Origin: a virus
Virus record (IMG/VR): IMGVR_UViG_3300037475_000199
Coordinates: 1-64,000 of that record
Direction: 5' to 3' (one strand)
DNA length: 64,000 bases
Below the pieces are notes generated by a model that saw only the letters and a list, made by a program, of their open reading frames with translations, was not told the DNA's origin and ran no database searches. Each line of letters starts with the position of its first letter. Position 1 is the stretch's first letter. Positions 7,511 through 63,013 of the stretch are shown here, piece after piece. The position numbers and the translations under genes were made by a program.

Positions 7511-7514
7511 AATT

Positions 7515-9003: not shown

Positions 9004-9007
9004 ATAT

Positions 9008-9079: not shown

Positions 9080-9228
9080 CAATTAATATTATATAAAAAT
9101 AATTTGGGACATTTTACCACAATAGAAACGATGATTTACGGGACATTTATAGACTTTATTATCTAAGTCATGGTAATAAATATGAATTACATCATGTAAC
9201 TTAGTTATCTTTAACGAGGATAAGTGTA

Positions 9229-16078: not shown

Positions 16079-16082
16079 AAAT

Positions 16083-16177: not shown

Positions 16178-16182
16178 TTTAT

Positions 16183-33494: not shown

Positions 33495-33576
33495 TTAAAC
33501 ATATGTTTGAATCTGTTATATAGGTTCATGTTCCCAGAGAGGGAACTTTATAATTTAGACAACATGGAGAATGTTA

Positions 33577-37970: not shown

Positions 37971-38885
37971 ATGTGTAATGTACTCGTAGGCACAGCTGTT
38001 GGTGATGCTTTAGGTGTTCCATTTGAAACTTTTTTGATAAATAATCCTCTTCTTTTAGATTGGGATGGAACAACTTATCTTGGAAGTAAATATCATGGTT
38101 TAGAACCAGGTCAATACTCAGATGACACTCAACTATCTATTTTGGTTGCTAAATCATTAATATTAAATTCTGGATTTAATCCAGACGATTTAGCTGCAAG
38201 ATATCAAGATTGGTTTTTTTCTGGCGTTGCACGAGGTTATGGTAAAACAACAAAGTTAGCTATGGAAGCTCTTAAAAGTGGTAAACATTGGAATGAATCT
38301 GGGATTGCCGGCTCTTTAGGTAATGGAACGGCTATGCGTGCAGCTCCATTTGGAGTTTACTTTAGAAATGATTTTAAACAATTAATTGCTGCAGTAAAAA
38401 TAGATTCAGCAATTACGCATGTTTCAGAAGATGCTGAAGCTGGAGCTATTGCTATTGCATTAACAGCAGCTTATGCCGTTAATCGTAACACTGAAAATCT
38501 TTTAGACAAAATTTGTGAAAATTTACCAGACTGTAAAGTTAAAAAAACAATTTCTAGTTTGGATGCATTAATTAACGCAGATAATATTACTCCTCCACAA
38601 GCTTTAAGAGTATTGGGGACAAAGGCTAATGTACAAGAAACTGTGCCCGCAGCATTATATTGTTTTCTGAAATTTGATAATTATCACGATGCTGTGCTTG
38701 CTGCAATTAAAGCTGGTGGTGATACCGACACTACTGCCGCAATAGTTGGAGCTTTATTTGGAGCCAGAGATGGAATCAAAAAGATAGATAGAAAATTTTA
38801 TTCGGTAGAAGATTTTGATAAATTAATAGAGTTAGATAGCCAGCTTTATAACAGATCTAATTCATTATTTTTTCCTAGAAACTAA
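37971..38885 (+). CDS. ADP-ribosylglycohydrolase (ARH/DraG family)
   Basis: N-terminal VLVGTAVGDALGVPFE matches the ARH GdAlG...E motif. C-terminal AGGDTDTTAAIVGALFGA is the metal-binding D-T-D region. Confidence 0.6.
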   Translation: MCNVLVGTAVGDALGVPFETFLINNPLLLDWDGTTYLGSKYHGLEPGQYSDDTQLSILVAKSLILNSGFNPDDLAARYQDWFFSGVARGYGKTTKLAMEALKSGKHWNESGIAGSLGNGTAMRAAPFGVYFRNDFKQLIAAVKIDSAITHVSEDAEAGAIAIALTAAYAVNRNTENLLDKICENLPDCKVKKTISSLDALINADNITPPQALRVLGTKANVQETVPAALYCFLKFDNYHDAVLAAIKAGGDTDTTAAIVGALFGARDGIKKIDRKFYSVEDFDKLIELDSQLYNRSNSLFFPRN

Positions 38886-40444: not shown

Positions 40445-40473
40445 CATTTTTAAATGATTAGGATAGTGAAATG
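40445..40473 (+). promoter_or_regulatory. sigma70-like promoter (TTGACT-17-TAGGAT) within an ATGTG...CACAT inverted repeat
   Basis: Hexamers at the correct spacing. AAATGTGTGGTCTTGACTGCACATTT forms an inverted repeat over the -35. Confidence 0.35.
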
Positions 40474-40929
40474 GAAAACCACGAAACACCAGAAGCTATT
40501 AAAGCAAGGGCTGAACAAGCGGACCCTCTTGTTATGTATTTAATAGTAAGAGAAGAGTTAGAAATGAGTATTGGTAAAGCTTGTGCTCAATGCGCTCATG
40601 CTAGCCAAATGATCACTTTAAAATATTTGCCATTATATATTAAATATTTTGAAAAAGATATTGAGAATTCTGGTTGGATTGATAAAAGTTCATATGAAAG
40701 TTACTTAAGTTTTGTTGAATGGCTTGCCGGTTCTTTTCGTAAAGTGGTTCTTAAATCAGATGAAAAAGAATGGGTTAAAATCAAAAACGAGTTACCCAAC
40801 AACTCAATAATCGTTGTTGATGCGGGTTTAACCGAGCTTCAACCAAATACAGAAACAGTAATTGGTCTTTGGCCAATGAAAAGAAGTGAACGACCCAAAA
40901 TAATCAAAAAATTGCAAGTTTTAACATGA
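40471..40929 (+). CDS. peptidyl-tRNA hydrolase, PTH2 family
   Basis: PLVMYLIVREELEMSIGKACAQCAHAS aligns with the PTH2 core ([25 protein letters not shown]). Confidence 0.6.
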   Translation: MENHETPEAIKARAEQADPLVMYLIVREELEMSIGKACAQCAHASQMITLKYLPLYIKYFEKDIENSGWIDKSSYESYLSFVEWLAGSFRKVVLKSDEKEWVKIKNELPNNSIIVVDAGLTELQPNTETVIGLWPMKRSERPKIIKKLQVLT

Positions 40930-44087: not shown

Positions 44088-44278
44088 ATAAAAAATATTT
44101 TGTAGTTTATTATGTTTGGGACACTTTTCGAGGGTGGAATGGTCCAATGAATATTCTTATAGATAAACATCCCTTAAAGTGGCTTAAAGAAGATAAGATT
44201 GCGTTATCAAAAGAACATAGTTGGGATGACATTTCTATTTCTTGGTGGCAATTATTAGAGGAAGATTATGACAAATAA
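44084..44278 (+). CDS. small hypothetical protein
   Basis: ATGA overlap. Confidence 0.3.
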   Translation: MNKKYFVVYYVWDTFRGWNGPMNILIDKHPLKWLKEDKIALSKEHSWDDISISWWQLLEEDYDK

Positions 44279-45029
44279 AGATAGTTTAGGCGACAGAATA
44301 AAGGCTTATGAGGATTGTTATAGAGTACAATTACCTCAAAGAATGCCAGTTATTCTTAGGGTTGATGGCAAATCATTTCATAATTATACCAAAGGTTGTA
44401 AAAGACCTGTTGACGAGAACCTTGTCAATTGTATGAATGAGACAGCAAAATATCTTTGTGAAAATATTCAGGGAGCAAAATTAGGATATGTACAATCAGA
44501 TGAAATATCTATATTATTAACTAACTATGAAACAATAAATACGCAATCATGGTTCGATAATAATTTGGTTAAAATGGTTAGCATATCTTCGGCTTTAGCT
44601 TCAGCTAAATTTACCTCTATTTCTGACACTATTTTTGGTAAGCCTAAAATGGCAGTTTTTGACAGTCGAGCTTTTGTAGTTCCAGTTAATGATGTTTGTA
44701 ATTATTTTTTATGGAGACAACAAGATTGTACCAGAAATTCAGTTCAAATGTTAGCTAGAAGTCTTTATTCTCATAAAGAATGTAATAATAAGAACAATTC
44801 TCAATTGCAAGAGATGTGCTTTCAAAAAGGTATTAATTGGAATGATTGCCCTACATCTCAAAAACGTGGTAGATGTATAATTAAACAATACAAGGTTAAA
44901 ACTGGAACTAATATTAAAACTGGCGAACAATTTTCTGCAGAACGTTCCAGTTGGGAAGTTGATAACGAAATTCCAATTTTCTCATTAGATAGAAATTATA
45001 TTAATAAACTAATAATTCTTAAAGACTAA
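44268..45029 (+). CDS. tRNA(His) guanylyltransferase Thg1-like protein (TLP)
   Basis: VILRVDGKSFHNYT compares with the Thg1 rIDGkkFH motif. KRPVDEN compares with the PxDE motif. YVQSDEISILL compares with GESDEYSFI. Confidence 0.6.
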   Translation: MTNKDSLGDRIKAYEDCYRVQLPQRMPVILRVDGKSFHNYTKGCKRPVDENLVNCMNETAKYLCENIQGAKLGYVQSDEISILLTNYETINTQSWFDNNLVKMVSISSALASAKFTSISDTIFGKPKMAVFDSRAFVVPVNDVCNYFLWRQQDCTRNSVQMLARSLYSHKECNNKNNSQLQEMCFQKGINWNDCPTSQKRGRCIIKQYKVKTGTNIKTGEQFSAERSSWEVDNEIPIFSLDRNYINKLIILKD

Positions 45030-45362: not shown

Positions 45363-45650
45363 ATGGGCGTTGATTATTATACTTGTCAAAATTGCAGTGA
45401 TACATTTCCAGATTGTGGATACTATTTTACATGTAACGGTTGCGAAAGCATGTTTTGCTCAAACGAATGTGGTAAGAAACAAAGTGTAGATGGAAAAAAT
45501 CGCTGGAATGAAGATTTAACCTCATGTATTTTTTGTAGACATGAAGCAGTAACGGATAGAAGTGTTTTATTATTCTTGTGTAGGAAATATGGTATAACTG
45601 AAGAAGACGCAAATAAAGAGTGTTTAGAGGCTTGTAAAAATGGAAAATAA
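45363..45650 (+). CDS. Cys-rich hypothetical protein
   Basis: CQNCS...CNGC...CSNEC...CIFC motifs. Confidence 0.4.
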   Translation: MGVDYYTCQNCSDTFPDCGYYFTCNGCESMFCSNECGKKQSVDGKNRWNEDLTSCIFCRHEAVTDRSVLLFLCRKYGITEEDANKECLEACKNGK

Positions 45651-46266
45651 AGAATCTTTTAGAAATAGAATACAACCATATTTCTCCCCTGCAGTTCAAT
45701 TGGATATTAAACTTGCTTATGTATTAGCTAAATTTGGTCATCGAGCTCAAACTAGAAAAGAGCTTGATGATAATGGTAAGCCAATTAGATACTTTGAGCA
45801 TGTTAGAAGAGTTGCCATTATTCTTATGGATGATATGAAGATTATGGATGAAACAATGATCATTGCAGCTTTGCTTCATGACAGTCTAGAGGATACTTTG
45901 GATTTGACTCCCGAACTGTTAGAACACTCTTTTGGCATAGAAGCTGTCAATATAATTAAACATCTATCTAAGTGCCCTAAAGAGGGGTATCATCAAAGGT
46001 TGGCTAATTGTAGTAATTGGAAGGTTCTAGCTATTAAAGCTTGTGATAGATTAGATAATTTAAGGTCTTTAATGGTTCCAGGAACGCTTCTTAGCTTTCA
46101 AAAGAAACAAATTCAAGAAACAAAGGAAATTTATTATCCTTTATTTGACCAATTGCTTAATAGGTGCCCCTCTGAATTTAAAAACAATGTTCAATGGGTT
46201 CGCGATGAAATAAGAAGATTGGTCGAAAGATATAGTGTAATGATAGAGATGCAAGAGCAACCTTAA
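45640..46266 (+). CDS. RelA/SpoT-type HD-domain (p)ppGpp hydrolase (small alarmone hydrolase-like)
   Basis: AKFGHRAQTRK...YFEHVRRVAIIL...IIAALLHDSLEDT aligns with the SpoT HD hydrolase motifs (H..Q.R.sGePY..H...VA.iL...AALLHDvvEDT). Confidence 0.6.
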   Translation: MENKESFRNRIQPYFSPAVQLDIKLAYVLAKFGHRAQTRKELDDNGKPIRYFEHVRRVAIILMDDMKIMDETMIIAALLHDSLEDTLDLTPELLEHSFGIEAVNIIKHLSKCPKEGYHQRLANCSNWKVLAIKACDRLDNLRSLMVPGTLLSFQKKQIQETKEIYYPLFDQLLNRCPSEFKNNVQWVRDEIRRLVERYSVMIEMQEQP

Positions 46267-46854: not shown

Positions 46855-46883
46855 TTGACAGGTGGGCTTGACACCCTTATATT
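46855..46883 (+). promoter_or_regulatory. sigma70-like promoter (TTGACA-17-TATATT)
   Basis: TTGACA at 46855-46860 and TATATT at 46878-46883. A second TTGACA lies at 46868. Upstream of ligA. Confidence 0.45.
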
Positions 46884-46954
46884 GTCCGAGCCCACAGCGG
46901 GTTTATTTTATAAATTCAACATTTAACTGCATTGCACTTACCCAAGTAATTCAC

Positions 46955-48823
46955 ATGAACAGAATACAAGAATTATCAGACAAGATTATTAAGGCTCGTA
47001 ATGACTACTACAATCAACAGCCATCTGTTTCAGATAAGGTTTTTGATGCTTGGGTAGCTGAGCTATCATCTTTAGATCCAAATAATATAGCTGTAACGGC
47101 AATTGGTGCCCCAGTATTGCCCTCTGAATGGAAGAAGGCTAAGCATCAAATACCTATGGGCTCTTTAGATAAAGTTAATTTGCCAGCCGAACTAACTGCT
47201 TGGGTAGATACGCTACCCACAAATGGAAAACTTTTAATTACAGAGAAGCTAGATGGTCTTTCGATTGAAGTAATTTATGAAAATGGTAAGTTAACACAAG
47301 GCATTACTCGTGGTGATGGTGAAATTGGCGAAGATATTACTATTAATGTTGTTAAAATGAGTGGCGTCCCATCTCAATTAAAAGATAACTTTACTGGCTC
47401 TCTTAGAGGAGAGATTATTATGAAGAAAAGTGTTCATCAAAAGCACTTTTCAGATAAAGCAAATCCTCGAAATGCTGCTTCTGGAGTATCTAAACGTTTA
47501 GATGGTGTAGGTGTAGAGCACTTAAATATCTTCTTTTATCAAGCTTTGGGTGATATTGAGTTTCAGGCAGAGCAAGAACAATTTGCTTGGTTAGTTCATC
47601 AAGGTCTAACAACTCCTCTTTGGTGTTTAGCAAAGACCGCTGATGAGGTTAATAAGTTTTGGCGAGACTATCAAGACACTAAACGAGATAAATTAGACTA
47701 TGATATTGATGGTTTAGTTATTCGTCTTGATAATTTAGATGATCAAGCAGCTCTTGGAGACAAAGATCTTAGACCAAAGGGAGCTAAAGCCTTTAAATTT
47801 GATAATGAGACCAGAGAGTCAGTCATTAGAGATATTACTTGGCAAGTAGGCAACAGTGGTCGTATTACTCCTGTAGCCACAGTAGATCCAGTAGTACTGG
47901 TTGGGGCAACTGTAACTCGTGCCAGCATCTATAACCTAACTTATATTGAAGACCTAGGTCTAGATGTAGGTGCTACAGTTTTAGTAGCAAGAGCTAATGA
48001 TGTCATTCCCAGGATTGAAGAGTTGGTTAAAGGCACAGGAACTGTAGCTAAGCCACCAGCACATTGTCCAGAATGCAATGCTGTTACTATAATGAATGGA
48101 GAGAATCTACAATGTACTAATGTAGATACTTGTCCTGCACAAGTAATTGGTCGTATTAAGAACTGGGTAGCTGAGCTTAACTTATTAGAATGGGGCGACA
48201 CTCTTATTGAGAAGTTAGTTAAGTCTGGCAAGGTCTCTAATGTTGCTGACCTTTATACTTTAACTGTAGATGATTTAGCTAATTTAGATAGAATGGGTGA
48301 CAAGTCAGCAAAGAAATGTTATGATATTCTTTGGTCAGATGTAAATATTCCTTTGGACACTTTTTTAGGAGCTTTAAGTATGACAATGATTGGTGCTAGT
48401 ACCATTAAGTTAATTATGAATGCCGGCTGTGATACATTAGAAAAGTTTGGTCAGTTAAAGGCAGAACACTTTGAACAAGTCGCAGGCGTTGGTCCAACTA
48501 AAGCTAAGTTTTTGGCAGACGGATTAATGGCTAATCAAAAACTTATTTTGTCTATTTTGGATAACGGAGTTAAGATTAAAGATAAAGTTGATGGACCTTT
48601 GAGCAATAAAAGCGTTTGTTTTACTGGAACAATGACAAATAAGCGCCCAGTATTAGAGAAAATGGTTCAGGATGCAGGTGGCGATGTTAAAAGTTCTGTT
48701 GGCAAGGGTTTAACCTATTTGGTTATTGCAGATACTAATAGTACAAGCTCTAAAGCTGTTAGTGCTCGTAAGTATGGAACCACTTTAATTTCAGAAGATG
48801 AATTTTTAGATTTGGTGAAATAA
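46955..48823 (+). CDS. ligA: NAD+-dependent DNA ligase (LigA)
   Basis: Adenylation motif TEKLDGLSIEV (KxDG). Followed by OB, Zn-finger (CPECN...C), HhH and C-terminal BRCT-like regions. Start set at MNRIQEL. Confidence 0.7.
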   Translation: MNRIQELSDKIIKARNDYYNQQPSVSDKVFDAWVAELSSLDPNNIAVTAIGAPVLPSEWKKAKHQIPMGSLDKVNLPAELTAWVDTLPTNGKLLITEKLDGLSIEVIYENGKLTQGITRGDGEIGEDITINVVKMSGVPSQLKDNFTGSLRGEIIMKKSVHQKHFSDKANPRNAASGVSKRLDGVGVEHLNIFFYQALGDIEFQAEQEQFAWLVHQGLTTPLWCLAKTADEVNKFWRDYQDTKRDKLDYDIDGLVIRLDNLDDQAALGDKDLRPKGAKAFKFDNETRESVIRDITWQVGNSGRITPVATVDPVVLVGATVTRASIYNLTYIEDLGLDVGATVLVARANDVIPRIEELVKGTGTVAKPPAHCPECNAVTIMNGENLQCTNVDTCPAQVIGRIKNWVAELNLLEWGDTLIEKLVKSGKVSNVADLYTLTVDDLANLDRMGDKSAKKCYDILWSDVNIPLDTFLGALSMTMIGASTIKLIMNAGCDTLEKFGQLKAEHFEQVAGVGPTKAKFLADGLMANQKLILSILDNGVKIKDKVDGPLSNKSVCFTGTMTNKRPVLEKMVQDAGGDVKSSVGKGLTYLVIADTNSTSSKAVSARKYGTTLISEDEFLDLVK

Positions 48824-50642: not shown

Positions 50643-51506
50643 ATGAATTTAAAAATTTTTAAATCCGAAATTGATAGCAGTATAAATATAGTAGAAAAAC
50701 AATTAGTTGGATTTCTTGAATCTCGTTTTGTAAGAAAATGTAATGATTATTTTATTGCATATTTATCTTCTCAAACGGGATGCAATCGTGGCTGTACGTT
50801 TTGTCATCTAACTGCAACAGGGCAAACTTCTTTTACAGATTCTAGCCATAATGATTTTATGGCTCAAGCCATTCAAATTTTTAAACACTATAGAAAACAA
50901 ACGGTCAATGCAAAGTATATGCATTATAATTTTATGGCTCGTGGCGAACCATTAGCAAATAAAATTTTGCTTGAATCGGGCGACGAGTTGTTAGTTAAAC
51001 TTGGGCAGGTTGCTAAGGAAGAGGGATTGCCAGCAAAGTTTAATATCTCAACTATTATGCCAATAAGCTTAAAGAAATCATTAGTTACAACATTTAACTA
51101 TGTTAATCCAACAATTTACTATTCTTTATATTCTACCGACAAAGAATGGCGAAAGAAATGGATGCCTGCAGCAATGGATACTACTGATGCACTGAATCTT
51201 TTGAAAGATTATCAAGATTTTTCTAAAAAAATTATTAAAATACATTATCCTTTTATCGCTGGTGAAAATGATTCAGTTGAAGAGATTAATAATGTTTGTG
51301 ATGCTATAGAAAAAGTCAAACTTAATTGTGAATTTAATTTAGTTCGTTATAATCCAGCTTCTCCAGATCAAGGAATAGAGTCTTCGCAAGAGGTTATTGC
51401 TCGTAATATAGAAATTATTTCCAATAGATTTCAATTTAATGGAAAGGTACAAATTATTCCGAGAGTAGGATTCGATGTAAAGGCATCGTGCGGAATGTTT
51501 GTTTAA
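50643..51506 (+). CDS. RlmN/Cfr-like radical-SAM RNA methyltransferase (short form)
   Basis: SSQTGCNRGCTFCHLTATGQ parallels the RlmN motif SSQVGCALECKFCSTAQQG. MARGEPLAN parallels MGMGEPLLN. A C-terminal Cys sits in KASCGMF. Confidence 0.5.
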   Translation: MNLKIFKSEIDSSINIVEKQLVGFLESRFVRKCNDYFIAYLSSQTGCNRGCTFCHLTATGQTSFTDSSHNDFMAQAIQIFKHYRKQTVNAKYMHYNFMARGEPLANKILLESGDELLVKLGQVAKEEGLPAKFNISTIMPISLKKSLVTTFNYVNPTIYYSLYSTDKEWRKKWMPAAMDTTDALNLLKDYQDFSKKIIKIHYPFIAGENDSVEEINNVCDAIEKVKLNCEFNLVRYNPASPDQGIESSQEVIARNIEIISNRFQFNGKVQIIPRVGFDVKASCGMFV

Positions 51507-54184: not shown

Positions 54185-55690
54185 ATGGCAGAGAAATTAG
54201 TTGCTTATTCGGCAGGCGAAGAACCGTCTTTTCCTGGAGATTATGATGTAGTAAAAAGGACTACATTAAATTTTACAGACATTATTAACAACAACAATAA
54301 ATATTATAATTTAGAAGTTCAAGTTGCTAAGAATGGCAGTTCAAGAATTTTTACTCAGTATGGTCGAGTAGGCGGAACGGCAGCCAAAGAATATCGAGTA
54401 GCAGCTAATCAGTCTCATGCTGAAACTGAAGCCGAAAAAATTATCAAGTCCAAAACTAAAAAGGGCTATGTTGAAGTTAAATTGGTAAAAGCTGATATTG
54501 GGTCCGAAGCAGGCAAGGCTAAAGTTGATACTTCAGCTTCTAGCGTATCAGTTGATACACTTAAAAAGATGGGTGTTAAAGTTCAGGAAGCAGAAACCAG
54601 TAAATTACATCCTGAAATTGGAGATTTAGTTAGAACTTGGTTCGGCGTTACACAGGAATTTATTGAATTAAATCTTGACACTAAAAAGTGTCCATTAGGT
54701 CAATTATCGATTGATCAAATTGATAAAGCAAAAGAAATATTAGATGAAGCTCGTTTAATTATTCATGCATCTAAACCAGATGTATTAGAATTAAATAAAT
54801 TAACTAACTCTTATTATAGTAACATTCCTCATAACTTTGGTTATGGTAGAATTAATGCCGATGTACTTCGTTTAGACAACGATGATAAGGTAAATAAAGC
54901 TTTTGATATATTAGATGTTTTTGGTTCAGCTAAAAACGTTCAAAGTGTTATTTCAAAGAAATCGGCTGTAGACTCTCAGTATGCCACTTTAAATGCTGAT
55001 TTAAATTTTATTGATCCAAAAGATCCTATTTGGAAATGGATTGACACTATGTTGCATGAGACTAAAGCTAGCAATCATCATTTCTTAGGCAAATTAAAAA
55101 CTCATAAAATTTATAAAGTAAATCGTAAAGGTGAAGAACAGTATTTTCTTAAGAATGCAGAGAAGATTGCTAAAGAATGTGGAAAGCATGATCCTTCTCC
55201 AGTTTACTCTAAATTAGTTAAATCTCGCCCAGATGTATCAAAAGAGCTAAGAGATTTGTATGCAAGAGCTAACGTTTCTCCTGGTTGGCATGGAACTCGT
55301 AGAGCTAATATGATTGGCATTACTACTAAAGGTCTTTTAATTAGACCTTCAGGTGTAGTTCATGCTGGTTCAATGTATGGTGACGGTGTTTACTGGGCTA
55401 CTAATAGTACTAAGAGCATCAATTACTGTGATGTTCGTGGCTCATATTGGGCTGCTGGTACAAATAAAACGGCTTATTTATTCTTAGGTGATGTTGCTTT
55501 TGGTAATTATAAATATGCTAATGGCTCACAATATTATAATAGAAAGAATATTTCGCCAGCACATTCTGTTTTTGCTCAAGGCGGGAAGAGCGGAGTATTG
55601 AATGACGAAATTATTACTTATACTCCATCGGGTCCAGAGCAACAACATTGTTTAAGATATATTATTGAATTCGAAACACAAGCAAAATGA
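54185..55690 (+). CDS. PARP-like ADP-ribosyltransferase (WGR domain plus PARP catalytic domain; H-Y-D variant)
   Basis: WGR-like YYNLEVQ...QYGRVGG. Catalytic WHGTRRANMIGI...GSMYGDGVYWA carries the H-G-T motif and Tyr. YLFLGDVAFGNY aligns with PARP1 LLLGEVALG, with Asp in place of the catalytic Glu. Confidence 0.6.
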   Translation: MAEKLVAYSAGEEPSFPGDYDVVKRTTLNFTDIINNNNKYYNLEVQVAKNGSSRIFTQYGRVGGTAAKEYRVAANQSHAETEAEKIIKSKTKKGYVEVKLVKADIGSEAGKAKVDTSASSVSVDTLKKMGVKVQEAETSKLHPEIGDLVRTWFGVTQEFIELNLDTKKCPLGQLSIDQIDKAKEILDEARLIIHASKPDVLELNKLTNSYYSNIPHNFGYGRINADVLRLDNDDKVNKAFDILDVFGSAKNVQSVISKKSAVDSQYATLNADLNFIDPKDPIWKWIDTMLHETKASNHHFLGKLKTHKIYKVNRKGEEQYFLKNAEKIAKECGKHDPSPVYSKLVKSRPDVSKELRDLYARANVSPGWHGTRRANMIGITTKGLLIRPSGVVHAGSMYGDGVYWATNSTKSINYCDVRGSYWAAGTNKTAYLFLGDVAFGNYKYANGSQYYNRKNISPAHSVFAQGGKSGVLNDEIITYTPSGPEQQHCLRYIIEFETQAK

Positions 55691-56949
55691 AAATTGGATT
55701 ATTAACATTTCCCAGATTAACCAATAATTTTGCTGAGGGTAGACCAACTCTACTTGCACAAAAGCTGGAACCATCAGTATTATTTTTATCTCCATCTTAT
55801 GGAGAATTAGTCTTTATAGAAGACAACGTTCCTAGAGATGATATTGATTTATACTTATGTTCTGTATATACTCGTGGTTTAAGTGAGTTTATTACGTTTT
55901 CAAAGGCAGTAGGTAGAGACAAAGTAATTGCCGGAGGATATCATCCAACAGCAATGCCAGAAGAAATGCTGCCTTACGCTCATAAAGTAGTTACTGGTTA
56001 TTGTGACAACATCGATCAAATCATTGATGGTCCCACTGGAGTATCTAAAGGTTCTTTTGGTTTTACTAAGATGCGAAGAGATCTTGTTGATATGAAGTCA
56101 ATGACTCAAATTTATCCGGATATTTATCCAGATGATATTAGTGGTTCAATGGTTTCTTCTGTCGGATGTCCTTATGATTGTGACTTTTGCTCAACTCCAT
56201 CTATGTCTGGCAGAAAAATGCGAACAGCCAGCTTAGATTATGTAGCAGAAGAAATTGAAGACCTATTAAAGCATAATGTTACTACTGTTTTTATTAGAGA
56301 TGAAAGTTTTGCAACTCATCCAATGATGGCTGAAGTAGCTCCTTTATTTAAAGATAAATTTAAAGTTTTATATTCATTTGGAACCTCTGGTGTCTTTGCT
56401 AAAAAGCCAGAATTACTTAAAGTCTTAAAAGAGAGCGGCTGGCATTCTCTTAATATTGGATTAGAAGACGTTGGGGTAAAATATAGAAAAAATCTTAACT
56501 TAAAAATGGGTGTTGAAAATATTCATCGTAATGGTCTTCAACACGTAATGTCATTCATTGTAAATGATGATGGAAAATCTTTAGAAGAAGCTAAAGCAAA
56601 CTATAATTCTTTATATGATGCCTTTATAGATCTTAAACCATTGCAAGTTTGCGCGAACTTTTTGATGCCTTTTCCAGGAACGCAATTATGGCAATCATAT
56701 AAAGATCGTATGTCAGAAAAAGATTTTGATAATTTTGATTCAAAAACACCTATTTTTACTAAAGGTCCGATGCATGAATGGCACAAGAGGATGTTAGTTG
56801 CTGTACAACTCAAGTATTATTTAAGTGATTCTTATAATAAGAATGTAAGAAACTTTAATTGTGGAGATACGCTTAATCTTAGGATGAATGAGTTGCAAAA
56901 AGAATTTGGTTTAGATAATTTGTCGTGGGATAAACTATTAGAAATATGA
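55687..56949 (+). CDS. B12-binding-domain radical-SAM enzyme
   Basis: CPYDCDFC is the CxxxCxxC motif. N-terminal VIAGGYHPTAMPEEM resembles the class B cobalamin-binding region. ATGA overlap with the PARP gene indicates translational coupling. Confidence 0.55.
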   Translation: MKIGLLTFPRLTNNFAEGRPTLLAQKLEPSVLFLSPSYGELVFIEDNVPRDDIDLYLCSVYTRGLSEFITFSKAVGRDKVIAGGYHPTAMPEEMLPYAHKVVTGYCDNIDQIIDGPTGVSKGSFGFTKMRRDLVDMKSMTQIYPDIYPDDISGSMVSSVGCPYDCDFCSTPSMSGRKMRTASLDYVAEEIEDLLKHNVTTVFIRDESFATHPMMAEVAPLFKDKFKVLYSFGTSGVFAKKPELLKVLKESGWHSLNIGLEDVGVKYRKNLNLKMGVENIHRNGLQHVMSFIVNDDGKSLEEAKANYNSLYDAFIDLKPLQVCANFLMPFPGTQLWQSYKDRMSEKDFDNFDSKTPIFTKGPMHEWHKRMLVAVQLKYYLSDSYNKNVRNFNCGDTLNLRMNELQKEFGLDNLSWDKLLEI

Positions 56950-57136
56950 AGTTGTAGAAAATCTTGCAAATCTGACTAATAAGGTAATAAGAAAATTTAA
57001 TTACCTTGGGGAAGCTGAGCATTATATAAAAACAGAAAATAAGCCGAATTTAAGAATTAGACATTTGCCATTGCTAGAAACTTCTGTCTCAGGCGTTATT
57101 AGATTCTATAAATTAGAGCCTTATTGAGAAAATAAA

Positions 57137-57361
57137 ATGGGAATATTTATCTTTAATGATTCTGTGGTTTTTCATAAGCTAACTTCTCTTAAAATAATCA
57201 ATAAAGTTTTAAGGGGATTAGAAGCCAAATTTCCAATTGAAGTATATCCCAATTATGCAACTGAAAAAGATTTCTATAAATATACATTTAAAGAATCTAT
57301 TACTGATGAAACCTTAAAGAGGGCTTACGAATATTTAAGTAAGTTTAATAAAAATGCATAA
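57137..57361 (+). CDS. small hypothetical protein
   Basis: ORF only. Confidence 0.3.
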   Translation: MGIFIFNDSVVFHKLTSLKIINKVLRGLEAKFPIEVYPNYATEKDFYKYTFKESITDETLKRAYEYLSKFNKNA

Positions 57362-57626
57362 AAAGAAAACAAAGAAAAAATCTGCTTATAAAATTATGAA
57401 AGTATTTGATTGTCAAGATATGCCAGAAAATATTCGTCAAATGTTCTTTGAACTGTGTGAATCTGGCAATGATTGTTATGTTGATTGGACCATTAATGGT
57501 ACGACAGACGAATATATAACAGATGAAGAAAAAGCAATTGATGCTTGGTTGATATCTAATGGAGCGAATGGCGCTCCATCTGAAGATGATTCAGGAGAAG
57601 ATATATTAATTAGGCATTGGTGGTAA
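57354..57626 (+). CDS. small hypothetical protein
   Basis: The ORF overlaps the upstream stop. Confidence 0.3.
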   Translation: MHKKKTKKKSAYKIMKVFDCQDMPENIRQMFFELCESGNDCYVDWTINGTTDEYITDEEKAIDAWLISNGANGAPSEDDSGEDILIRHWW

Positions 57627-57627
57627 T

Positions 57628-58371
57628 ATGTTTAATAAATTTAATAAAATTTTAAACCTAATAAAACAAAGTTCTTCTCCATTTATTTTGTGTGCCATCG
57701 CTGCTGCATGTGATAATAAAGGAGAAATCCCTATATCGACATCTTTTTATAAACAAATAATAACTAAATATGGACCAAATATATCTAAAGGTAAAACTCC
57801 CCAAAATACTTTAAGCACATTATTACAATATCAGACTGGACTTGGAAGAACTATATTTCGTCGTAGGTCAAATAATTTAGAGTTAATAGATAAATCATAT
57901 TTGTCCACATTAAAAGAAGTTGCGCTTAGTTATTTGCCACCAACTTCTTTAAACATTAATAATGTTAAGCCTTTTATATCACTAACGACTCAAGCGCCGC
58001 AACCTTTAATTGATGAATTTAAAGTTCCTAAACAACATTTACAATCATACTTAAATGAAGGAATTTATATTGGAGTTGATCAAGAAACAAAAGATGGCAA
58101 AATTCAAATTAAAATAGGAAGATCTAATGATATTAAATCTCGTTTTAAAAGTTTAAAGCCGTATAAACTTGGAGCAATAGTGTCTGCTGACTTTTCAATC
58201 AAAGAAGAAAACAAATTTAAAAATAAATATTTGGAATTTAAACATGACGGCGAATATTTTCTTGTACCAAAAGATATATATAAAGAAATTATATCTTTAG
58301 ATGTTTCAAAAGAATATTCGCCTATTTCTTTAAAAAAGAAAATAGAAGATTTAATTGGAAAGAAAATATAA
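57628..58371 (+). CDS. hypothetical protein
   Basis: ORF only. Confidence 0.4.
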   Translation: MFNKFNKILNLIKQSSSPFILCAIAAACDNKGEIPISTSFYKQIITKYGPNISKGKTPQNTLSTLLQYQTGLGRTIFRRRSNNLELIDKSYLSTLKEVALSYLPPTSLNINNVKPFISLTTQAPQPLIDEFKVPKQHLQSYLNEGIYIGVDQETKDGKIQIKIGRSNDIKSRFKSLKPYKLGAIVSADFSIKEENKFKNKYLEFKHDGEYFLVPKDIYKEIISLDVSKEYSPISLKKKIEDLIGKKI

Positions 58372-58388
58372 TTTATGGAAAAAATTTA

Positions 58389-58865
58389 ATGATTACTATA
58401 ATTCAGGGAGATTTAATAGAAGCTAAAGAGAAATATTTGATCCACCAAACAAATTGTGTTTCGCATTTCGCGGCAGGTATTGCACAAACTATTTTTTCTA
58501 AATTTCCATATGCTAATGTTTATGCTAATAGAATAGAAGAAGACTTACCTGGACATATAGTTATTTGTGGTAACGGTAAAGATCAAAGATACATTGTTAA
58601 TTTAATGGGTCAGTTCTATCCTGGTGGATATTCTGAATCAGACATTGACAATGAAAAAGCACGACAACAATATTTCCACAAAGGATTACTTAGATTGGCT
58701 AAAATTCCTAATTTAGAGAGTGTTGCTTTTAATTTTAAAATTGGATGCGGAATTGGCGGAGGTAATTGGAATTGGTATAAAGGTACTCTTGAAAACTTTG
58801 CTAATTATATTGATAGTACACAAGGAGCTAAAACTTTTATCTATCAAAGAGAAGGTGACGTTTAA
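58389..58865 (+). CDS. macrodomain (ADP-ribose binding/hydrolase) protein
   Basis: ITIIQGDLIEAKEKYLIHQTNCVSHFAAGIAQ parallels the macro signature GDIT...IVNAAN..L.GGgGV. Confidence 0.55.
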   Translation: MITIIQGDLIEAKEKYLIHQTNCVSHFAAGIAQTIFSKFPYANVYANRIEEDLPGHIVICGNGKDQRYIVNLMGQFYPGGYSESDIDNEKARQQYFHKGLLRLAKIPNLESVAFNFKIGCGIGGGNWNWYKGTLENFANYIDSTQGAKTFIYQREGDV

Positions 58866-59197
58866 TGAAAAACGGATTAATAATTGATGATTATGGTACT
58901 CAAAAATGGTATAAAGAAGATCTTTTACATAAAGAAGACGGTCCTGCCGTAATCTGGAAAAGTGGAGATAAAGAATACCGCATTAATGGACAACTTCACA
59001 GAGAAGATGGTCCTGCTATTGAGTATAATAATTTTCATATGTGGTATTTTAATGATAAACTTCATAGAGTTGAAGGCGCCGCCGTCATTGACATTTTTAA
59101 TGATGAAAAAGAGTATTGGTATAAAGGAAAATCAGTTGAGGACATAGAAACTGACGAGGATTTTAAAAATTTCATCAAATTCAAGGCGTTTTGGTAA
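58865..59197 (+). CDS. MORN-repeat protein with KFKAFW tail
   Basis: LLHKEDGPA and QLHREDGPA repeats. C-terminus DEDFKNFIKFKAFW. Confidence 0.55.
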   Translation: MKNGLIIDDYGTQKWYKEDLLHKEDGPAVIWKSGDKEYRINGQLHREDGPAIEYNNFHMWYFNDKLHRVEGAAVIDIFNDEKEYWYKGKSVEDIETDEDFKNFIKFKAFW

Positions 59198-59199
59198 AC

Positions 59200-59658
59200 A
59201 TGACAATTAAGTTTTATACTTCTGCCGAACCATATGGATATTTAAATAATTTTAAAAAGTCGCCTATGTTTGTGTATGGTCGTTGGTGGAAAAATGTTGA
59301 ATCAGCTTATCAAGCACAAAAGACAATTATTCCAGAAGAATATAATAAAATTTGGTTAGCTAAACATCCAAGAGAAGCAAGAAATTTAGGACAAATAGTT
59401 CATATTAGAAAAGATTGGGATGAAATAAAAGTCTCAGTTATGTATGAATGTGTTTTAGCAAAATTTGTTCAAAATAAAGATTTTAGAAATAGATTGTTTT
59501 CTACTGGTGATGAAGAAATTGCAGAAGATTCTCCAATTGATTCATTTTGGGGATTAGGTCCAAATGGTGACGGATTAAATCATTTGGGTAAAATTCTAAT
59601 GAAAGTTAGAAGTATTTTAAGAACAAATGAATATTATGAATTATTTCAAGGATTATAA
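59200..59658 (+). CDS. NADAR (DUF1768/YbiA-like) domain protein, copy 2
   Basis: FYTSAEPYGYLNNF...VESAYQAQKT...FWGLG...LGKILMKVR matches the NADAR signature. ATG 59200, or TTG 59191. Confidence 0.6.
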   Translation: MTIKFYTSAEPYGYLNNFKKSPMFVYGRWWKNVESAYQAQKTIIPEEYNKIWLAKHPREARNLGQIVHIRKDWDEIKVSVMYECVLAKFVQNKDFRNRLFSTGDEEIAEDSPIDSFWGLGPNGDGLNHLGKILMKVRSILRTNEYYELFQGL

Positions 59659-60140
59659 TGACACAAAAAGAAAAATATATATTTAATGTTGGTGATCGTG
59701 TGGCTGTTAGTTTAAATCATAATGGAGATTTATCTACAAAATTTGTTTATGATGGTAATCATGGGTTAGAATATGGTGAAGTTATTTCAGTTTTACCTAA
59801 AAATAAATTACTTATTTTATGGGAGGCAGCCTATTTAAATCACTCCAATTACAGTACTAAAACTGGAAAATATACTTATGAACCAAAGATAATGAATTCT
59901 AATGGAATTTTGCCAGCTAAAGATGCCGAAGAGCAATTTTCTGTTTTAGAAAAAGAATTTAAAAAAATAGAAAAAGAGATTAAAGATAAGCTCGAAAATG
60001 CTGCAAAATTAATTATTGAAGCAGATAAGCTTGCTAGCAAGGCAACTGATGGCACTTTGTCTGACATGTATGACGCAATCTCTCCACTATATGATGCAAT
60101 GGATAAGTGTGGTTGGAATACCTCATCTTTTAGTTGTTAA
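59658..60140 (+). CDS. hypothetical protein
   Basis: Its start overlaps the NADAR stop. Confidence 0.4.
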   Translation: MTQKEKYIFNVGDRVAVSLNHNGDLSTKFVYDGNHGLEYGEVISVLPKNKLLILWEAAYLNHSNYSTKTGKYTYEPKIMNSNGILPAKDAEEQFSVLEKEFKKIEKEIKDKLENAAKLIIEADKLASKATDGTLSDMYDAISPLYDAMDKCGWNTSSFSC

Positions 60141-60227
60141 ATTAAAAAATAAACAACCCCTTGCGCCCTTATTTATAAAATATATGATATTATTGCAGAT
60201 TTTTATTACCGATTTTAAAGAGGAAAA

Positions 60228-60743
60228 ATGATTCAATTACAAGATGTAGTATTAAATGTTGTTAAAGATTTTGTGAAGAATGAAGTATTATTTACTGGTC
60301 TTGATGTAAGTAATGAAGTTAAAAAGACTTTACCTTTTGCTAAACATAAAGATGTTAGAGATTTGGTTAGAGCTGCTTGGCAATCTGATATTTCTCCACA
60401 AAACTATGATCGTACTCCAATTAAAGTAGTTTTAGTTGATGGTACAGTAGCCGATGCTTTGTTGTATCATCCATTATCTGCTTCTTGGGATTTAGATAAT
60501 CTTTATACTCAACAACAACGTAGCCAAACACTTAATAAAGTGGGCGTTACACAAACGGCACCTGTTACAGTAGCACCAGTAACTTCAGTAAGTGGTACTC
60601 TATCAAAAGCTGATGATGGAACTTTAACAGTAGTTACAGCTCCTGTAAACCCTTTGTCGATCACAGCTGCGCCAGCAGTTAATCCAAGAGATCTTTGGGC
60701 TCAAATGTGGCAAAATCAACCTTCATTATTTCCACGTAAATAA
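60228..60743 (+). CDS. hypothetical protein with A/P/V/T-rich C-terminal low-complexity tail
   Basis: TAPVTVAPVTSVSG...TAPVNPLSITAAPAVNP. Confidence 0.4.
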   Translation: MIQLQDVVLNVVKDFVKNEVLFTGLDVSNEVKKTLPFAKHKDVRDLVRAAWQSDISPQNYDRTPIKVVLVDGTVADALLYHPLSASWDLDNLYTQQQRSQTLNKVGVTQTAPVTVAPVTSVSGTLSKADDGTLTVVTAPVNPLSITAAPAVNPRDLWAQMWQNQPSLFPRK

Positions 60744-60748
60744 TTATT

Positions 60749-61321
60749 TTATAATAGTTTGGTTGGGTCTTCTGGACTACTGGTTGGACCATGATCTAAT
60801 TGCTCAATTTTATCTAATTCTGCTTCAGATTGATAAATATCCATTAACATAGGATTATCTTGTATATATTTTTTTAATTTAGGTATTAATTGACAAAATT
60901 TACTTATACTAAATACTTTGGGTTGTTTAAGGTTATCTTTACCATAAAAAGAAACTTCATGTTTTTTAAGATGATTTTCAATTAAAAATTCTAAATTTTC
61001 CAATATTGCTTTATTTTGTTTAGCATTAGCCCAATTAATTAGATTAAGTGTGCCAGGATAAGGATCTCTTGGATCTATGTCTTTATACAAATCTATTATT
61101 TGTTGATATATTTTAATTAATAATTGACGCAATTCAGGATTAAATCCCTTTTCTTTTAGAATAAAAAGATCACCAGCCAATTCATTAACAATATTTTTTA
61201 ATGCACCAGTGGTATCATAATAAAATTCTTCTAATCGGTCTTTTTGTTGTTTAAGCTTTTCGTCAGTAAAATGCTCGTGAGCTATTTTATTTGCTAATCT
61301 TTGCACTAAAGTACTACTCAT
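60749..61321 (-). CDS. hypothetical protein (minus strand)
   Basis: 190-aa ORF convergent with the upstream gene. An AT-rich divergent intergenic region lies at 61322-61441. Confidence 0.4.
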   Translation of the reverse strand: MSSTLVQRLANKIAHEHFTDEKLKQQKDRLEEFYYDTTGALKNIVNELAGDLFILKEKGFNPELRQLLIKIYQQIIDLYKDIDPRDPYPGTLNLINWANAKQNKAILENLEFLIENHLKKHEVSFYGKDNLKQPKVFSISKFCQLIPKLKKYIQDNPMLMDIYQSEAELDKIEQLDHGPTSSPEDPTKLL

Positions 61322-61441
61322 TTTATACCTAATAATAATATGAAAATATTCAATATGTTTAAGAATTTATAAAATTATTGTTTATTATATCTAATAATGA
61401 CTCGACAATTAAAACTATATTAACTTTTTCTTGAGGAAATT

Positions 61442-61645
61442 ATGCACACTTATAATGAAGCTAATCAAGTTAGATTGATTTTAAAAATGAAGCTATATAG
61501 CTATAGTTGGTATAATAATAGTGAAGTTAGACCTCATAAAGAAGGTTATTCTGTAGCAATTATAGTTAGAGAAATAAATAAAAAAGTTAAAAGATATATA
61601 CCAAAACATATAAACAACATACCTATAAATCTAGAATTAGGTTAA
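61442..61645 (+). CDS. small hypothetical protein
   Basis: ORF only. Confidence 0.3.
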   Translation: MHTYNEANQVRLILKMKLYSYSWYNNSEVRPHKEGYSVAIIVREINKKVKRYIPKHINNIPINLELG

Positions 61646-61655: not shown

Positions 61656-62318
61656 TTGCGCCTTTGTCATATTTCCGATACTCATGGTCATTTAAATCCA
61701 TTACAAGGATTCTTTGATGTAATTGTTCATTCAGGTGATTTTTTGCCCGATCCTCCGGGCAATCCTTCTTTCAAAGATGAAATAGGTCTTTGGCAACTTG
61801 ATTGGGTAAAAGATAATATAGATTCATTAAAAAAATGGATTGGAAATTATCCGTTCCTTTTTACTTTAGGAAATCATGATCATGTAGATCCTTATGATCT
61901 AGAAAAGCTTTTAAGAAAAAATAATATTGATGCAAATTGCTTACATGATAACATCTTTAAAATAAATGATATTGGATTTTATGGATTTCCATTTGTACCA
62001 TATATTAACGGATCTTTTGCATACGAAAGATTTGAGCCATACATGCAAGATGAGGTTAATGTATTGGTTGAACAAGTGAATGCGGGTAAAGTAAATGTAT
62101 TAGTTTGCCATGCTCCCCCACTAAATATTTTAGATTTATCTTACAGTAAACATCACTTAGGTAGTGCTATAATAGCAAGTGGACTTGCAAAAATTAAGGC
62201 AAAGAAATTGCCATCATATTATTTGTGTGGGCACATACATTACTCTAGAGGTGTAATGTTTAAGCATAATATTTGTTTTAGTAATGCTGCTTGTTTTCAA
62301 CAAATTTTAGAAATTTAA
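61656..62318 (+). CDS. calcineurin-like metallophosphoesterase
   Basis: CHISDTHGH, SGDF and GNHDH are motifs I to III of the MPE family. Confidence 0.55.
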   Translation: MRLCHISDTHGHLNPLQGFFDVIVHSGDFLPDPPGNPSFKDEIGLWQLDWVKDNIDSLKKWIGNYPFLFTLGNHDHVDPYDLEKLLRKNNIDANCLHDNIFKINDIGFYGFPFVPYINGSFAYERFEPYMQDEVNVLVEQVNAGKVNVLVCHAPPLNILDLSYSKHHLGSAIIASGLAKIKAKKLPSYYLCGHIHYSRGVMFKHNICFSNAACFQQILEI

Positions 62319-62347
62319 ATGTATTAATAAAAGATTGGTTTCATTTT

Positions 62348-63013
62348 ATGAAAATAATAGTTGTAAGTGATACTCACGGCAAACATAAAAATTTAGATAG
62401 TTCAAAATTAGAATGTGATACTTTTATCCATGCTGGTGATATTACTACACAGGGAGAATTAAGTACATTACTTGATTTTTCTTTTTGGTTAAAAGATATT
62501 CCGGCAAATAATAAAATAGTAATTTTTGGTAATCATGAAATTGGATTTCAAAATGGACCTAAGCGTCAAAAAGCAATAGAAATGATTAAAGAAACAGGCG
62601 CATATTATTTAGAAAATAATTCAATAATAATTGATGGAATAAAATTTTATGGATCTCCAGCTACTCCATATTTTTTTGGTTGGGAATGGAATTATCAAAG
62701 AGGAGAGGAAATTGGAAAGCAATGGTCTCAAATTCCAGATGATGTTAATGTTCTTATTACTCATGGTCCTCCATATGGAATTTTAGATCTTGTTGAAGAT
62801 ACAGCATCTAATGCTGGAAGAGATTTACATCAAGGTTGTGCAGATTTACGAAAAAGAATTTCATCTTTAACACAATTAAAAGCACATGTCTTTGGTCATT
62901 TACATTTGAACGGTGGACAAATGGTAAAAATTGCTGATACAGTCTTTGCTAATGGTGCTATTTGTACTGAAAGATATGCTCCAACTAACTTATCTGTGGT
63001 ATTTGAAATATGA
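62348..63013 (+). CDS. calcineurin-like metallophosphoesterase (second tandem copy)
   Basis: VVSDTHGKH, AGDIT and GNHE are MPE motifs. Start set at MKIIVVSD. Confidence 0.55.
   Translation: MKIIVVSDTHGKHKNLDSSKLECDTFIHAGDITTQGELSTLLDFSFWLKDIPANNKIVIFGNHEIGFQNGPKRQKAIEMIKETGAYYLENNSIIIDGIKFYGSPATPYFFGWEWNYQRGEEIGKQWSQIPDDVNVLITHGPPYGILDLVEDTASNAGRDLHQGCADLRKRISSLTQLKAHVFGHLHLNGGQMVKIADTVFANGAICTERYAPTNLSVVFEI

Follow-up and report, generated by a model that had tools for sequence, protein, structure and literature searches.

A 64,000-nt stretch of viral DNA (positions 1 to 64,000 of the IMG/VR virus record IMGVR_UViG_3300037475_000199; hereafter the window), which is densely packed, almost entirely on the plus strand and 30% in GC content, carries genes for a PARP1/2-like ADP-ribosyltransferase (PARP), a macrodomain protein and a NADAR protein. 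Comparison with related loci demonstrated that these genes, in this order, constitute a conserved unit in a clade of very large uncultured phages, and that a macrodomain of the same class is linked to a PARP in a second, deeply divergent phage clade. The macrodomain and NADAR proteins are predicted to be two ADP-ribose erasers of unrelated folds, which may serve the PARP as their writer.

A conserved PARP-macrodomain-NADAR unit

We collected 167 loci encoding relatives of the macrodomain and searched these loci with the proteins of the window; the counts given here for the window's clade refer to non-redundant relatives with a macrodomain identity of at least 47% and enough flanking sequence. 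A PARP gene was found within 5 kb upstream of the macrodomain gene in 36 of 44 relatives, and a NADAR gene within 1.5 kb downstream in 33 of 53, nine of which have a gap of 10 nt or less. All three genes were present in 24 of the 37 well-flanked relatives. The NADAR gene adjoined the macrodomain gene only where a PARP gene was also near (24/5/0/7 loci with both, PARP only, NADAR only and neither; Fisher p = 9.5e-5, not corrected for phylogeny). The spacing between the PARP and macrodomain genes varied from 96 nt to 4.9 kb, the PARP gene ending 96-122 nt before the macrodomain gene in some relatives, and the inserts (radical-SAM genes, homing-endonuclease-like genes or repeat paralogues) varied as well. 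Despite such frequent insertions, the three genes stay neighbours on one strand. Ancestrally, the three genes were probably contiguous, and we propose the PARP gene, encoding the putative writer, to have been the first of them. Below a macrodomain identity of ~45%, the linkage is gone.

The relatives of the window reside on IMG/VR contigs, which in many cases have a length of 250-500 kb. No cultured phage is close to this clade, as (i) a blastn search with positions 57000-61500 against 50,697 GenBank phages gave no match, and (ii) tblastn retrieved only distant PARPs (at most 32% identity over most of the protein, and at most 43% over short C-terminal pieces) and distant macrodomains of Bacillus phages. 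In cellular genomes, the close macrodomain family was found in two contigs of metagenome-assembled genomes only, L170 ('Candidatus Berkiella sp.') and L171 ('Nanoarchaeota archaeon'), with 51-53% identity. These are probably viral contigs binned into the assembled genomes, and are therefore uninformative about the host. The length of both is short or medium, and L171 appears to match a 60,417-bp metagenome contig (L151).

Recurrence in a second phage clade

At a distant locus, L063, whose macrodomain and PARP catalytic domain are 32% and 38% identical to those of the window, respectively, the PARP gene adjoins a macrodomain gene of the Gln type described below. The L063 PARP as a query yielded 80 loci (L185-L264) from a different phage clade, on contigs up to ~200 kb, and a family hidden Markov model (HMM) detected an ALC1-class macrodomain near the PARP in 68 of the 80. 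The macrodomain gene lies mostly directly upstream of the PARP gene (gap of -21 to +37 nt), and 0.5-1.3 kb away in a few loci. In L189 (positions 4222-7227) and L193 (positions 4185-7209), the two loci that were examined over their whole length, genes for an ATP-dependent DNA ligase, the macrodomain and the PARP stand in a tight row.

Gln is absent from the key position in 63 of the second-clade macrodomains, and those inspected by eye carry the Lys of human TARG1 ('NLVTK..FHKPTY'). Most of the inspected Lys-type proteins also possess 'IGCGLDKLDW', which contains the 'GCGLD' Asp motif, and thus have both TARG1 catalytic residues. MAFFT --add shifted the TARG1-type Lys by a few columns, and the Lys-type macrodomains were therefore classed by motif and by eye. 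Another five are of the Gln type like that of the window, four being encoded directly or closely upstream of the PARP gene and one downstream. That the association recurs although the gene order has changed and the macrodomain subtype has been swapped is the strongest argument that the macrodomain protein may be the partner eraser of the PARP. The swap between Gln-type and TARG1-type proteins upstream of the PARP provides evidence from nature that either mechanism can stand in for the other.

The three proteins of the unit

The PARP gene (54185-55690, plus strand) encodes WGR, helical regulatory and catalytic domains (Pfam WGR, 1.3e-16; PARP_reg, 3.1e-18; PARP, 2.6e-18), and the protein is homologous to human PARP1 and PARP2 over its full length. 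The H-Y-E triad is found in the translation at 'WHGTR', 'YGDGVYWA' and 'LNDEIITY', so that the protein has all that marks the PARP1/2/3 type, namely a WGR domain, a helical regulatory domain and an ADP-ribosyltransferase domain with H-Y-E.

The macrodomain gene (58389-58865, plus strand; 158 aa) scores 20.4 bits against Pfam PF01661, below the gathering cut-off of 22, and some of its homologues have a precomputed PF01661 match. It also matches phrog_335 (1e-19), a family annotated as 'phosphatase'. The protein has the three-layer alpha/beta/alpha macrodomain fold, and its structure model, built from 21 homologues, has a predicted local distance difference test score (pLDDT) of 93.9. A first-pass annotation, made from the sequence alone, had proposed to distinguish MacroD, ALC1 and Af1521 types by alignment. 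Alignment upheld the macrodomain and placed it in the ALC1/TARG1/DarG class, in the SCO6735/Bt_1257 subclass with Gln instead of the catalytic Lys (Gln type). The MacroD/Af1521 type was rejected, as neither the MacroD motif nor the closest structural similarity to that type was found; the motifs of the type, after Rack et al. 2016, are reportedly Nx(6)GG[VLI]D and G[VIA][YF]G. Since the protein belongs to the ALC1/TARG1/DarG class, the GDIT and GGGV loops, by which the first-pass annotation would have judged ADP-ribose contacts, are not applicable to it.

Pairwise/phmmer, profile and MAFFT alignments all matched Q75 of the macrodomain with DarG K80 and with the Gln of Bt_1257, and the position is Gln in 134 of 138 family members; N22 matches DarG N22. 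The residues retained (H19, N22, Q75, G119 and G121) are equivalent to His24, Asn27, Gln85, Gly126 and Gly128 of SCO6735 from Streptomyces coelicolor. In the latter enzyme, Gln85 takes the place of Lys and the Q85A substitution abolishes activity, which is nearly lost or substantially lower in the N27S and G128E variants; His24 belongs to the active site, full activity on DNA requires Asn27, Lys34 and Gly128, and the diphosphate is contacted by Gly126 (PMC9411070). SCO6735 frees thymidines in DNA of the ADP-ribose attached by DarT, strips mono-ADP-ribose from PARP1 E988Q and neutralises DarT in cells. TARG1 reverses PARP-made Glu/Asp-linked ADP-ribose (PMC9411070). At the positions of the TARG1 dyad, the window protein has Q75 for Lys84 and G123 (Ala in most relatives) for Asp125. 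It consists of the macrodomain alone, without the C-terminal DarT-binding domain of DarG2. We predict from these residues that the protein is an ADP-ribosyl hydrolase and the first eraser of the unit. Its substrates had been given as protein Glu/Asp-linked ADP-ribose or O-acetyl-ADP-ribose; the activities published for the subclass, on thymidine-linked ADP-ribose in DNA and on mono-ADP-ribosylated PARP1 E988Q, do not include O-acetyl-ADP-ribose.

The NADAR gene (59200-59658, plus strand; 152 aa) matches PF08719 at 117.3 bits (gathering cut-off 35.1) and phrog_1017 at 3.5e-36. In the comparison with Escherichia coli YbiA (2b3w; E 2.1e-21), 'EIAEDSPIDSFWG' was aligned to 'KLVEHTENDAYWG' of YbiA. 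Seven of the eight active-site residues that contact ADP-ribose in the P. nicotianae NADAR are kept (E43, K50, W89, R93 as K, E125, D130 and W133), and R79 is replaced by Q. The family-defining Glu of the last strand (P. nicotianae E125) is located in the motif 'EIAEDSP', and the Glu motif 'xE[DN]S..D..WG' occurs in nearly all relatives. The protein begins at the YbiA core with no N-terminal extension. No match to PF08010 was found, the last-strand residue is Glu rather than the Asp of DarG1 or the His of gp30.3, and no DarT was noticed nearby. Thus, the protein is a YbiA-type (Glu) NADAR and is predicted to be an N-glycosidic ADP-ribosyl hydrolase, the second eraser.

That the NADAR acts on base-linked ADP-ribose, as had been claimed, is in line with its family identity and, by analogy, with what has been reported for NADARs (PMC11543638, PMC11125620). 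In vitro, NADARs of the YbiA type hydrolyse ADP-ribose linked to guanine and to cytosine (PMC11125620, PMC12945103); YbiA of E. coli did not rescue cells from DarT1 toxicity (PMC11125620). The claim of two different erasers on either side of a middle gene also held up, as both outer genes appear to encode catalytically equipped hydrolases, and their folds are unrelated. The phage carries a second NADAR as well, a paralogue of the Glu type ('LVEASPYDKIWGIG') at positions 12095-12592 (plus strand; 165 aa; PF08719 at 3.3e-49) with 33% identity to the first.

Gene structure and selection

The macrodomain gene, a gene of MORN-like repeats (58865-59197, plus strand; 110 aa) and the NADAR gene were borne out by the calls of open reading frames (ORFs) where the first-pass annotation had placed them, all on one strand. 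For the NADAR, the start at ATG 59200 agrees with the N-termini of homologues ('M(T)IKFY'); the ORF call of the program reaches back to TTG 59191. The ratios of nonsynonymous to synonymous substitutions (dN/dS) against the related locus L183 were 0.19 for the macrodomain gene and 0.08 for each of the repeat and NADAR genes (72-91% protein identity), and the three are therefore real genes under purifying selection.

The three genes had been described as coupled by ATGA and TAATG. The macrodomain and repeat genes are indeed joined by TAATG with a 1-nt overlap, and the packing is tight, but the junction between the repeat and NADAR genes is TAAacATG, with a 2-nt spacer and no ATGA. The NADAR gene is joined by TAATG to a 160-aa ORF of no assigned function (59658-60140, plus strand), which has no Pfam or PHROG family match and is 68% identical to its copy in L183 (dN/dS 0.22). 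Co-transcription of the macrodomain, repeat and NADAR genes is plausible from their packing. A scan predicted no terminator within the three genes, but neither promoters nor terminators were enriched over shuffled sequences (51 promoter-like sites versus 51.5 expected), so that the scan is uninformative on co-transcription.

Passenger genes within and around the unit

The protein encoded between the two erasers comprises three ~23-residue repeats, putatively of beta-hairpin type, with an 'LHREDGPA' ('HRxDGPA') core, followed by a C-terminal helix. It had been named a MORN-tail protein. The fold appears MORN-like, but the protein has no match to Pfam MORN (PF02493) or MORN_2 (PF07661) even at E up to 10, and the one relative that matched MORN_2 did so at E 0.007, below the cut-off. 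We rejected an identity of the relatives with DUF6745, since the matches cover no more than the 'HRxDGPA' motif (18-30 residues, against the 206 positions of the model). The family has at least 279 homologues, further copies being present in the window, and in one locus (L127, positions 1-9724; TARA scaffold75946_3) ~15-20 tandem ~109-aa 'HRxDGPA' paralogues surround the PARP gene and extend up to the macrodomain gene.

Although the repeat gene had been taken as part of the set, it lies between the two eraser genes only in the close lineage of the window (L001 and L183/L184), with possibly one further case in L157, where a repeat-family match follows just after the macrodomain gene. Elsewhere, the slot is empty (a 3-7 nt gap, nine loci) or held by at least six other, unrelated small genes. 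The MORN-like gene is therefore a lineage-specific passenger from a proliferating paralogue family, and not a component of the conserved unit. We propose the same for the 160-aa ORF, which is confined to the close lineage of the window, and regard the slot as insertion-prone. The 160-aa ORF ends in '...CGWNTSSFSC' (L001 version, 'CGWQTSSMGC'), and the commonest filler of the slot between the macrodomain and NADAR genes elsewhere is a ~47-aa ORF ending in '...NGWVSSNC' (16 loci; L011, L012 and L017 among them). The two share the C-terminal tail 'GW-x-(T)SS-x-x-C', and a B12/radical-SAM gene is nearby in some genomes.

The stretch between the PARP and macrodomain genes (55687-58371, plus strand) is a variable insert outside the conserved core. 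It contains a B12-binding/radical-SAM gene (55687-56949, plus strand; Pfam), two small ORFs (57137-57626, plus strand) and a T5orf172/MUG113 (GIY-YIG-like) gene (57628-58371, plus strand; Pfam). The radical-SAM gene, which begins in a 4-nt overlap (ATGA) with the end of the PARP gene and is 97% identical to its copy in L183 (dN/dS 0.02), is missing from most relatives; another radical-SAM-like ORF is located at 50643-51506. In L001, the slot of the T5orf172 gene is occupied by a different, 281-aa ORF (4187-5032), which by eye resembles a LAGLIDADG homing endonuclease; L183 has no gene in this slot. The site directly upstream of the macrodomain gene thus appears to be an insertion hotspot of selfish endonucleases. 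L183 also carries, between its radical-SAM and macrodomain genes, a gene for a 148-aa nucleoside 2-deoxyribosyltransferase/YpsA-like (SLOG-like) protein (2901-3347). The SLOG-like family was tied to the processing of ADP-ribose derivatives in the survey of Iyer et al. (PMC9503650).

Genomic context

Downstream of the unit, a 171-aa ORF with no Pfam or PHROG match (60228-60743, plus strand) is a conserved neighbour, with a homologue within 3 kb downstream of the macrodomain gene in 43 of 53 relatives. Two tandem calcineurin-like metallophosphoesterase genes (61656-63013, plus strand; Pfam Metallophos) are conserved by synteny further downstream. Upstream, an NAD+-dependent DNA ligase gene (LigA; 46862-48823, plus strand; Pfam) is found, which by synteny lies 4-9 kb upstream of the macrodomain gene in relatives. 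The window also encodes an NMNAT-Nudix fusion (33571-34590, plus strand; Pfam CTP_transf_like and NUDIX), NAMPT (34634-36085, plus strand; Pfam NAMPT_N and NAPRTase) and an ADP-ribosylglycohydrolase of the ARH/DraG fold (37971-38885, plus strand; PF03747 at 2.4e-68, phrog_6572 at 4e-44). The last of these, just upstream of a gene for a UvrD-like helicase (38915-40414), adds a third, unrelated eraser fold for ADP-ribose to the genome. Together with the second NADAR and the ligase, these genes make up a full NAD+/ADP-ribose toolkit. A pair of the NMNAT-Nudix and NAMPT type is reported to form an NAD+ salvage route, NARP2, by which phages counter NAD+-depleting defences (PMC13464706); the adjacent pair in the window would also recycle the nicotinamide released by the PARP.

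Apart from PHROG-family genes, the window contains 17 tRNA genes within positions 1462-27697, and genes for a Thg1-like tRNA-His guanylyltransferase (44268-45029), PTH2 (40471-40929), a Pol-beta nucleotidyltransferase (36357-36977) and an HD protein (45640-46266), all of which fit a theme of tRNA/RNA repair. One tRNA call (16082-16178) has a four-base anticodon (agtc) with no amino acid assigned.

A putative writer/eraser cycle and its alternatives

The first-pass annotation had offered two readings of the eraser genes, namely the detoxification of host ADP-ribosylating defences and the resetting of a PARP-like modification of the phage's own. The latter has the stronger comparative support, though the activities behind it are putative. 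We give about an even chance to a phage-encoded writer/eraser cycle in which coupling to the PARP is the primary role of the erasers. The PARP, with its WGR sensor of DNA breaks, helical regulatory domain and H-Y-E triad, would attach ADP-ribose from NAD+ to targets during infection, which by analogy with PARP1-3 could be itself, other proteins or DNA ends. The Gln-type macrodomain would remove the linkages processed by TARG1 and SCO6735, i.e., mono-ADP-ribose on protein carboxylates and thymine-linked ADP-ribose on DNA, and the YbiA-type NADAR would remove N-glycosidic ADP-ribose linked to the bases guanine or cytosine. The two erasers might thereby keep phage DNA and proteins free of ADP-ribose, whether its source is the phage PARP or a DarT-like toxin of the host, and the products might be recycled by the phage Nudix, NAMPT and NMNAT activities. 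Adjacency of an ADP-ribosyltransferase gene and a hydrolase gene marks functional pairs, such as DarT-DarG, DarT1-NADAR, SirTM-macrodomain and the bacterial PARP-PARG.

Several observations weigh against this cycle. To our knowledge, no PARP makes base-linked ADP-ribose, and a substrate link between a PARP and a NADAR has no biochemical precedent that we know of. In the window, the PARP and macrodomain genes are 2.7 kb apart with unrelated genes between them; the NADAR gene is missing at five of the 29 PARP-positive loci of the clade, and no NADAR was found within 6 kb in the second clade. The PARPs of the cultured phages XacN1 and Cellulophaga phi4:1 have no adjacent macrodomain or NADAR. (A 154-aa ORF between the PARP and ligase genes of Cellulophaga phi4:1 was considered as a macrodomain and rejected by both Pfam and the macrodomain family HMM.) The synteny within the window's clade could be vertical inheritance of a collinear genome, in which LigA, the 171-aa ORF and the phosphoesterases keep their order too. 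At the residue level, Lys34 of SCO6735, a mutation of which almost abolishes activity on DNA (PMC9411070), is equivalent to Ala29 in the window protein, and the position is Ala in 73 of 88 close relatives. Finally, SCO6735 has a longer 'mobile loop' after the Gln with the basic residues K89 and K93 (PMC9411070). This loop is 16 aa with a net charge of -3 in the window protein (13 in SCO6735 and 7 in DarG), an acidity unlike most relatives, whose loop is basic ('PG[KR]P[KR]YP', typically 'PGKPKYP'). Acidity of the loop, considered along with Ala29 as a sign of protein over DNA substrates, was accordingly dropped as a family property.

A dual counter-defence against DarT toxins as the sole function is plausible, but less likely than the PARP-coupled cycle. 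The macrodomain, like DarG2, AdfM or SCO6735, would strip DarT2-made thymine-linked ADP-ribose from single-stranded phage DNA; the NADAR, like DarG1 or AdfN, would strip the guanine-linked ADP-ribose made by DarT1 or by other pierisin/YarT-like toxins; and the PARP would be a mere neighbour. The phage precedents make such a function plausible by analogy, as (i) the macrodomain AdfM of PhiKZ counters DarTG2 (PMC13309987), and (ii) three phylogenetically distinct phage NADARs (AdfN) neutralise DarTG1 (PMC11825919). SCO6735, which represents the closest characterised subclass, cleaves DarT-made ADP-ribosylated thymidine efficiently besides neutralising DarT in cells (PMC9411070), and the in vitro activity of YbiA-type NADARs on guanine- and cytosine-linked ADP-ribose (PMC11125620, PMC12945103) would give the two adjacent genes complementary specificities. 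Nevertheless, counter-defence leaves unexplained why the NADAR gene stands beside the macrodomain gene only where a PARP gene is present, and why ALC1-class macrodomains, mostly TARG1-like and not DarG-like, accompany the PARP at 68 of the 80 loci of a clade unrelated to that of the window. Moreover, neither the catalytic Lys of DarG and AdfM nor the Lys34 of SCO6735 is present in the window protein, and the failure of E. coli YbiA to rescue DarT1-intoxicated cells (PMC11125620) speaks against the NADAR part. Counter-defence and the PARP-coupled cycle are not mutually exclusive.

Small ADP-ribose derivatives are improbable as the substrates of the two erasers. Following the general proposal of Iyer et al. 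2022 for phage macrodomain/NADAR pairs, these could be ADP-ribose-1''-phosphate or its cyclic phosphate from tRNA repair, O-acetyl-ADP-ribose, or Thoeris/TIR signals of the cyclic ADP-ribose (cADPR) type. Macrodomain, NADAR, SLOG and Nudix genes co-occur and neighbour each other in DNA viruses, for which those authors favoured soluble substrates (PMC9503650), and the 'phosphatase' annotation of phrog_335, the deoxyribosyltransferase/SLOG-like gene in the same block of L183 and the richness of the window in tRNA/RNA-repair genes (17 tRNAs, Thg1-like protein, PTH2, Pol-beta nucleotidyltransferase and HD protein) point the same way. However, the tight and recurrent partner is a PARP, a modifier of macromolecules, rather than a TIR, sirtuin or KptA protein; neither KptA/Tpt1 nor a 2H phosphoesterase was noticed in the vicinity of the cluster; and the macrodomain residues kept are those that SCO6735 needs for macromolecular substrates.

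That there is no functional unit at all, the genes being independent accessories held together by collinear descent of a region of a large phage genome, is likewise improbable. In its favour, gene order is also conserved for LigA, the 171-aa ORF and the metallophosphoesterases, the PARP/macrodomain/NADAR slots take many unrelated inserts and the full trio is confined to relatives of a single clade. Against it, the adjacency of PARP and macrodomain genes recurs in the second clade with the macrodomain gene upstream and of a different subtype, the three genes remain neighbours on one strand despite the insertions, and the presence of the NADAR gene is conditional on that of the PARP gene.

Significance

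The co-occurrence and neighbourhood of macrodomain and NADAR genes in DNA viruses (PMC9503650) and the presence of PARPs in a few jumbo phages (PMC7824862, PMC4245714) have already been reported, as has the countering of DarTG by phage NADARs (AdfN, PMC11825919) and macrodomains (AdfM, PMC13309987). In the searchable literature, we did not find a conserved PARP-macrodomain-NADAR block, a virus-specific family of Gln-type macrodomains, or an arrangement of a ligase, a TARG1-type macrodomain and a PARP. AdfM-type macrodomains and AdfN-type NADARs of phages have so far been studied singly as counter-measures against DarT, and phage PARPs only in surveys. The present data link a PARP1/2-like writer to an ALC1-class macrodomain in two deeply divergent phage clades, with a NADAR in addition in the window's clade, and extend the little-studied Gln-type (SCO6735) subclass to a large virus-specific family. 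The system poses the questions of whether a prokaryotic virus runs an ADP-ribosylation cycle of its own, what the phage PARP targets, and whether the NADAR acts on a PARP product. If the anti-DarT function is the true one, the cassette would be the first case found of a phage pairing erasers of thymine- and guanine-linked ADP-ribose on DNA.

An unlikely extension of the PARP-coupled cycle would be a self-contained, eukaryote-like system of reversible ADP-ribosylation in large phages. The PARP would then modify nucleic acid as well as protein, with the NADAR as the dedicated eraser of a PARP-made base-linked mark, a new class of PARP substrate; the Gln- and TARG1-type macrodomains would be the ancestral partners of PARPs, and the PARP-TARG1 pairing of animals would already exist in phages next to a DNA ligase.

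Comparison with known systems

The middle protein differs from MORN proteins (TbMORN1, MORN3/4 and junctophilin) in having no Pfam MORN or MORN_2 match, a distinct 'LHREDGPA' core and only three repeats plus a helix, and in belonging to a phage multigene family.

The macrodomain resembles SCO6735 and Bt_1257 (Bacteroides thetaiotaomicron) in the Gln for the catalytic Lys, in the His, Asn and two PB-loop Gly kept, in the extended loop after the Gln and in the shared motif 'IGCG-x-[AG]-GG-x-W'. It differs from them in its low identity (~19-25%), in the Ala for Lys34 and in the loop, which has 16-18 residues versus 13 and is acidic in the window; the SCO6735 gene stands alone on a bacterial chromosome (PMC9411070), whereas the macrodomain of the window is phage-encoded and linked to a PARP and a NADAR. 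With DarG2 and AdfM (PhiKZ gp104), it shares the active-site Asn (N22), and as a stand-alone phage macrodomain it could likewise reverse ADP-ribosylation of DNA. The catalytic Lys of these proteins (DarG K80, AdfM K78) is Gln in the window protein. Human TARG1 (C6orf130) and the TARG1-type phage macrodomains (e.g., that of L189) are set apart by Lys84 and Asp125, which have no equivalents in the window protein.

The NADAR of the window shares its fold, active site and stand-alone minimal domain with YbiA of E. coli and with the phage AdfN proteins (T4 gp30.3, Bas32 and Bas60). The Glu of the last strand is a further likeness to YbiA, and the phage-encoded nature one to AdfN, phage NADARs proven to hydrolyse guanine-linked ADP-ribose on DNA. 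Being of the Glu type, it differs from T4 gp30.3 (His type) and from DarG1/BC4488 (Asp type, with a basic N-terminal DNA-binding extension and a DarT1 neighbour). It also has Gln at the position of R79 of the P. nicotianae enzyme, and its place directly after a macrodomain and a PARP is unique.

As a whole, the unit is comparable to DarT-DarG, DarT1-NADAR, SirTM-macrodomain and PARP-PARG, in all of which a writer gene adjoins the hydrolase gene or genes that reverse its product. Unlike in these pairs, the putative writer here is a PARP1/2-like protein with WGR and regulatory domains, it is accompanied by two predicted erasers of unrelated folds and no PARG, and the setting is a lytic-looking large phage genome rather than a toxin-antitoxin locus.

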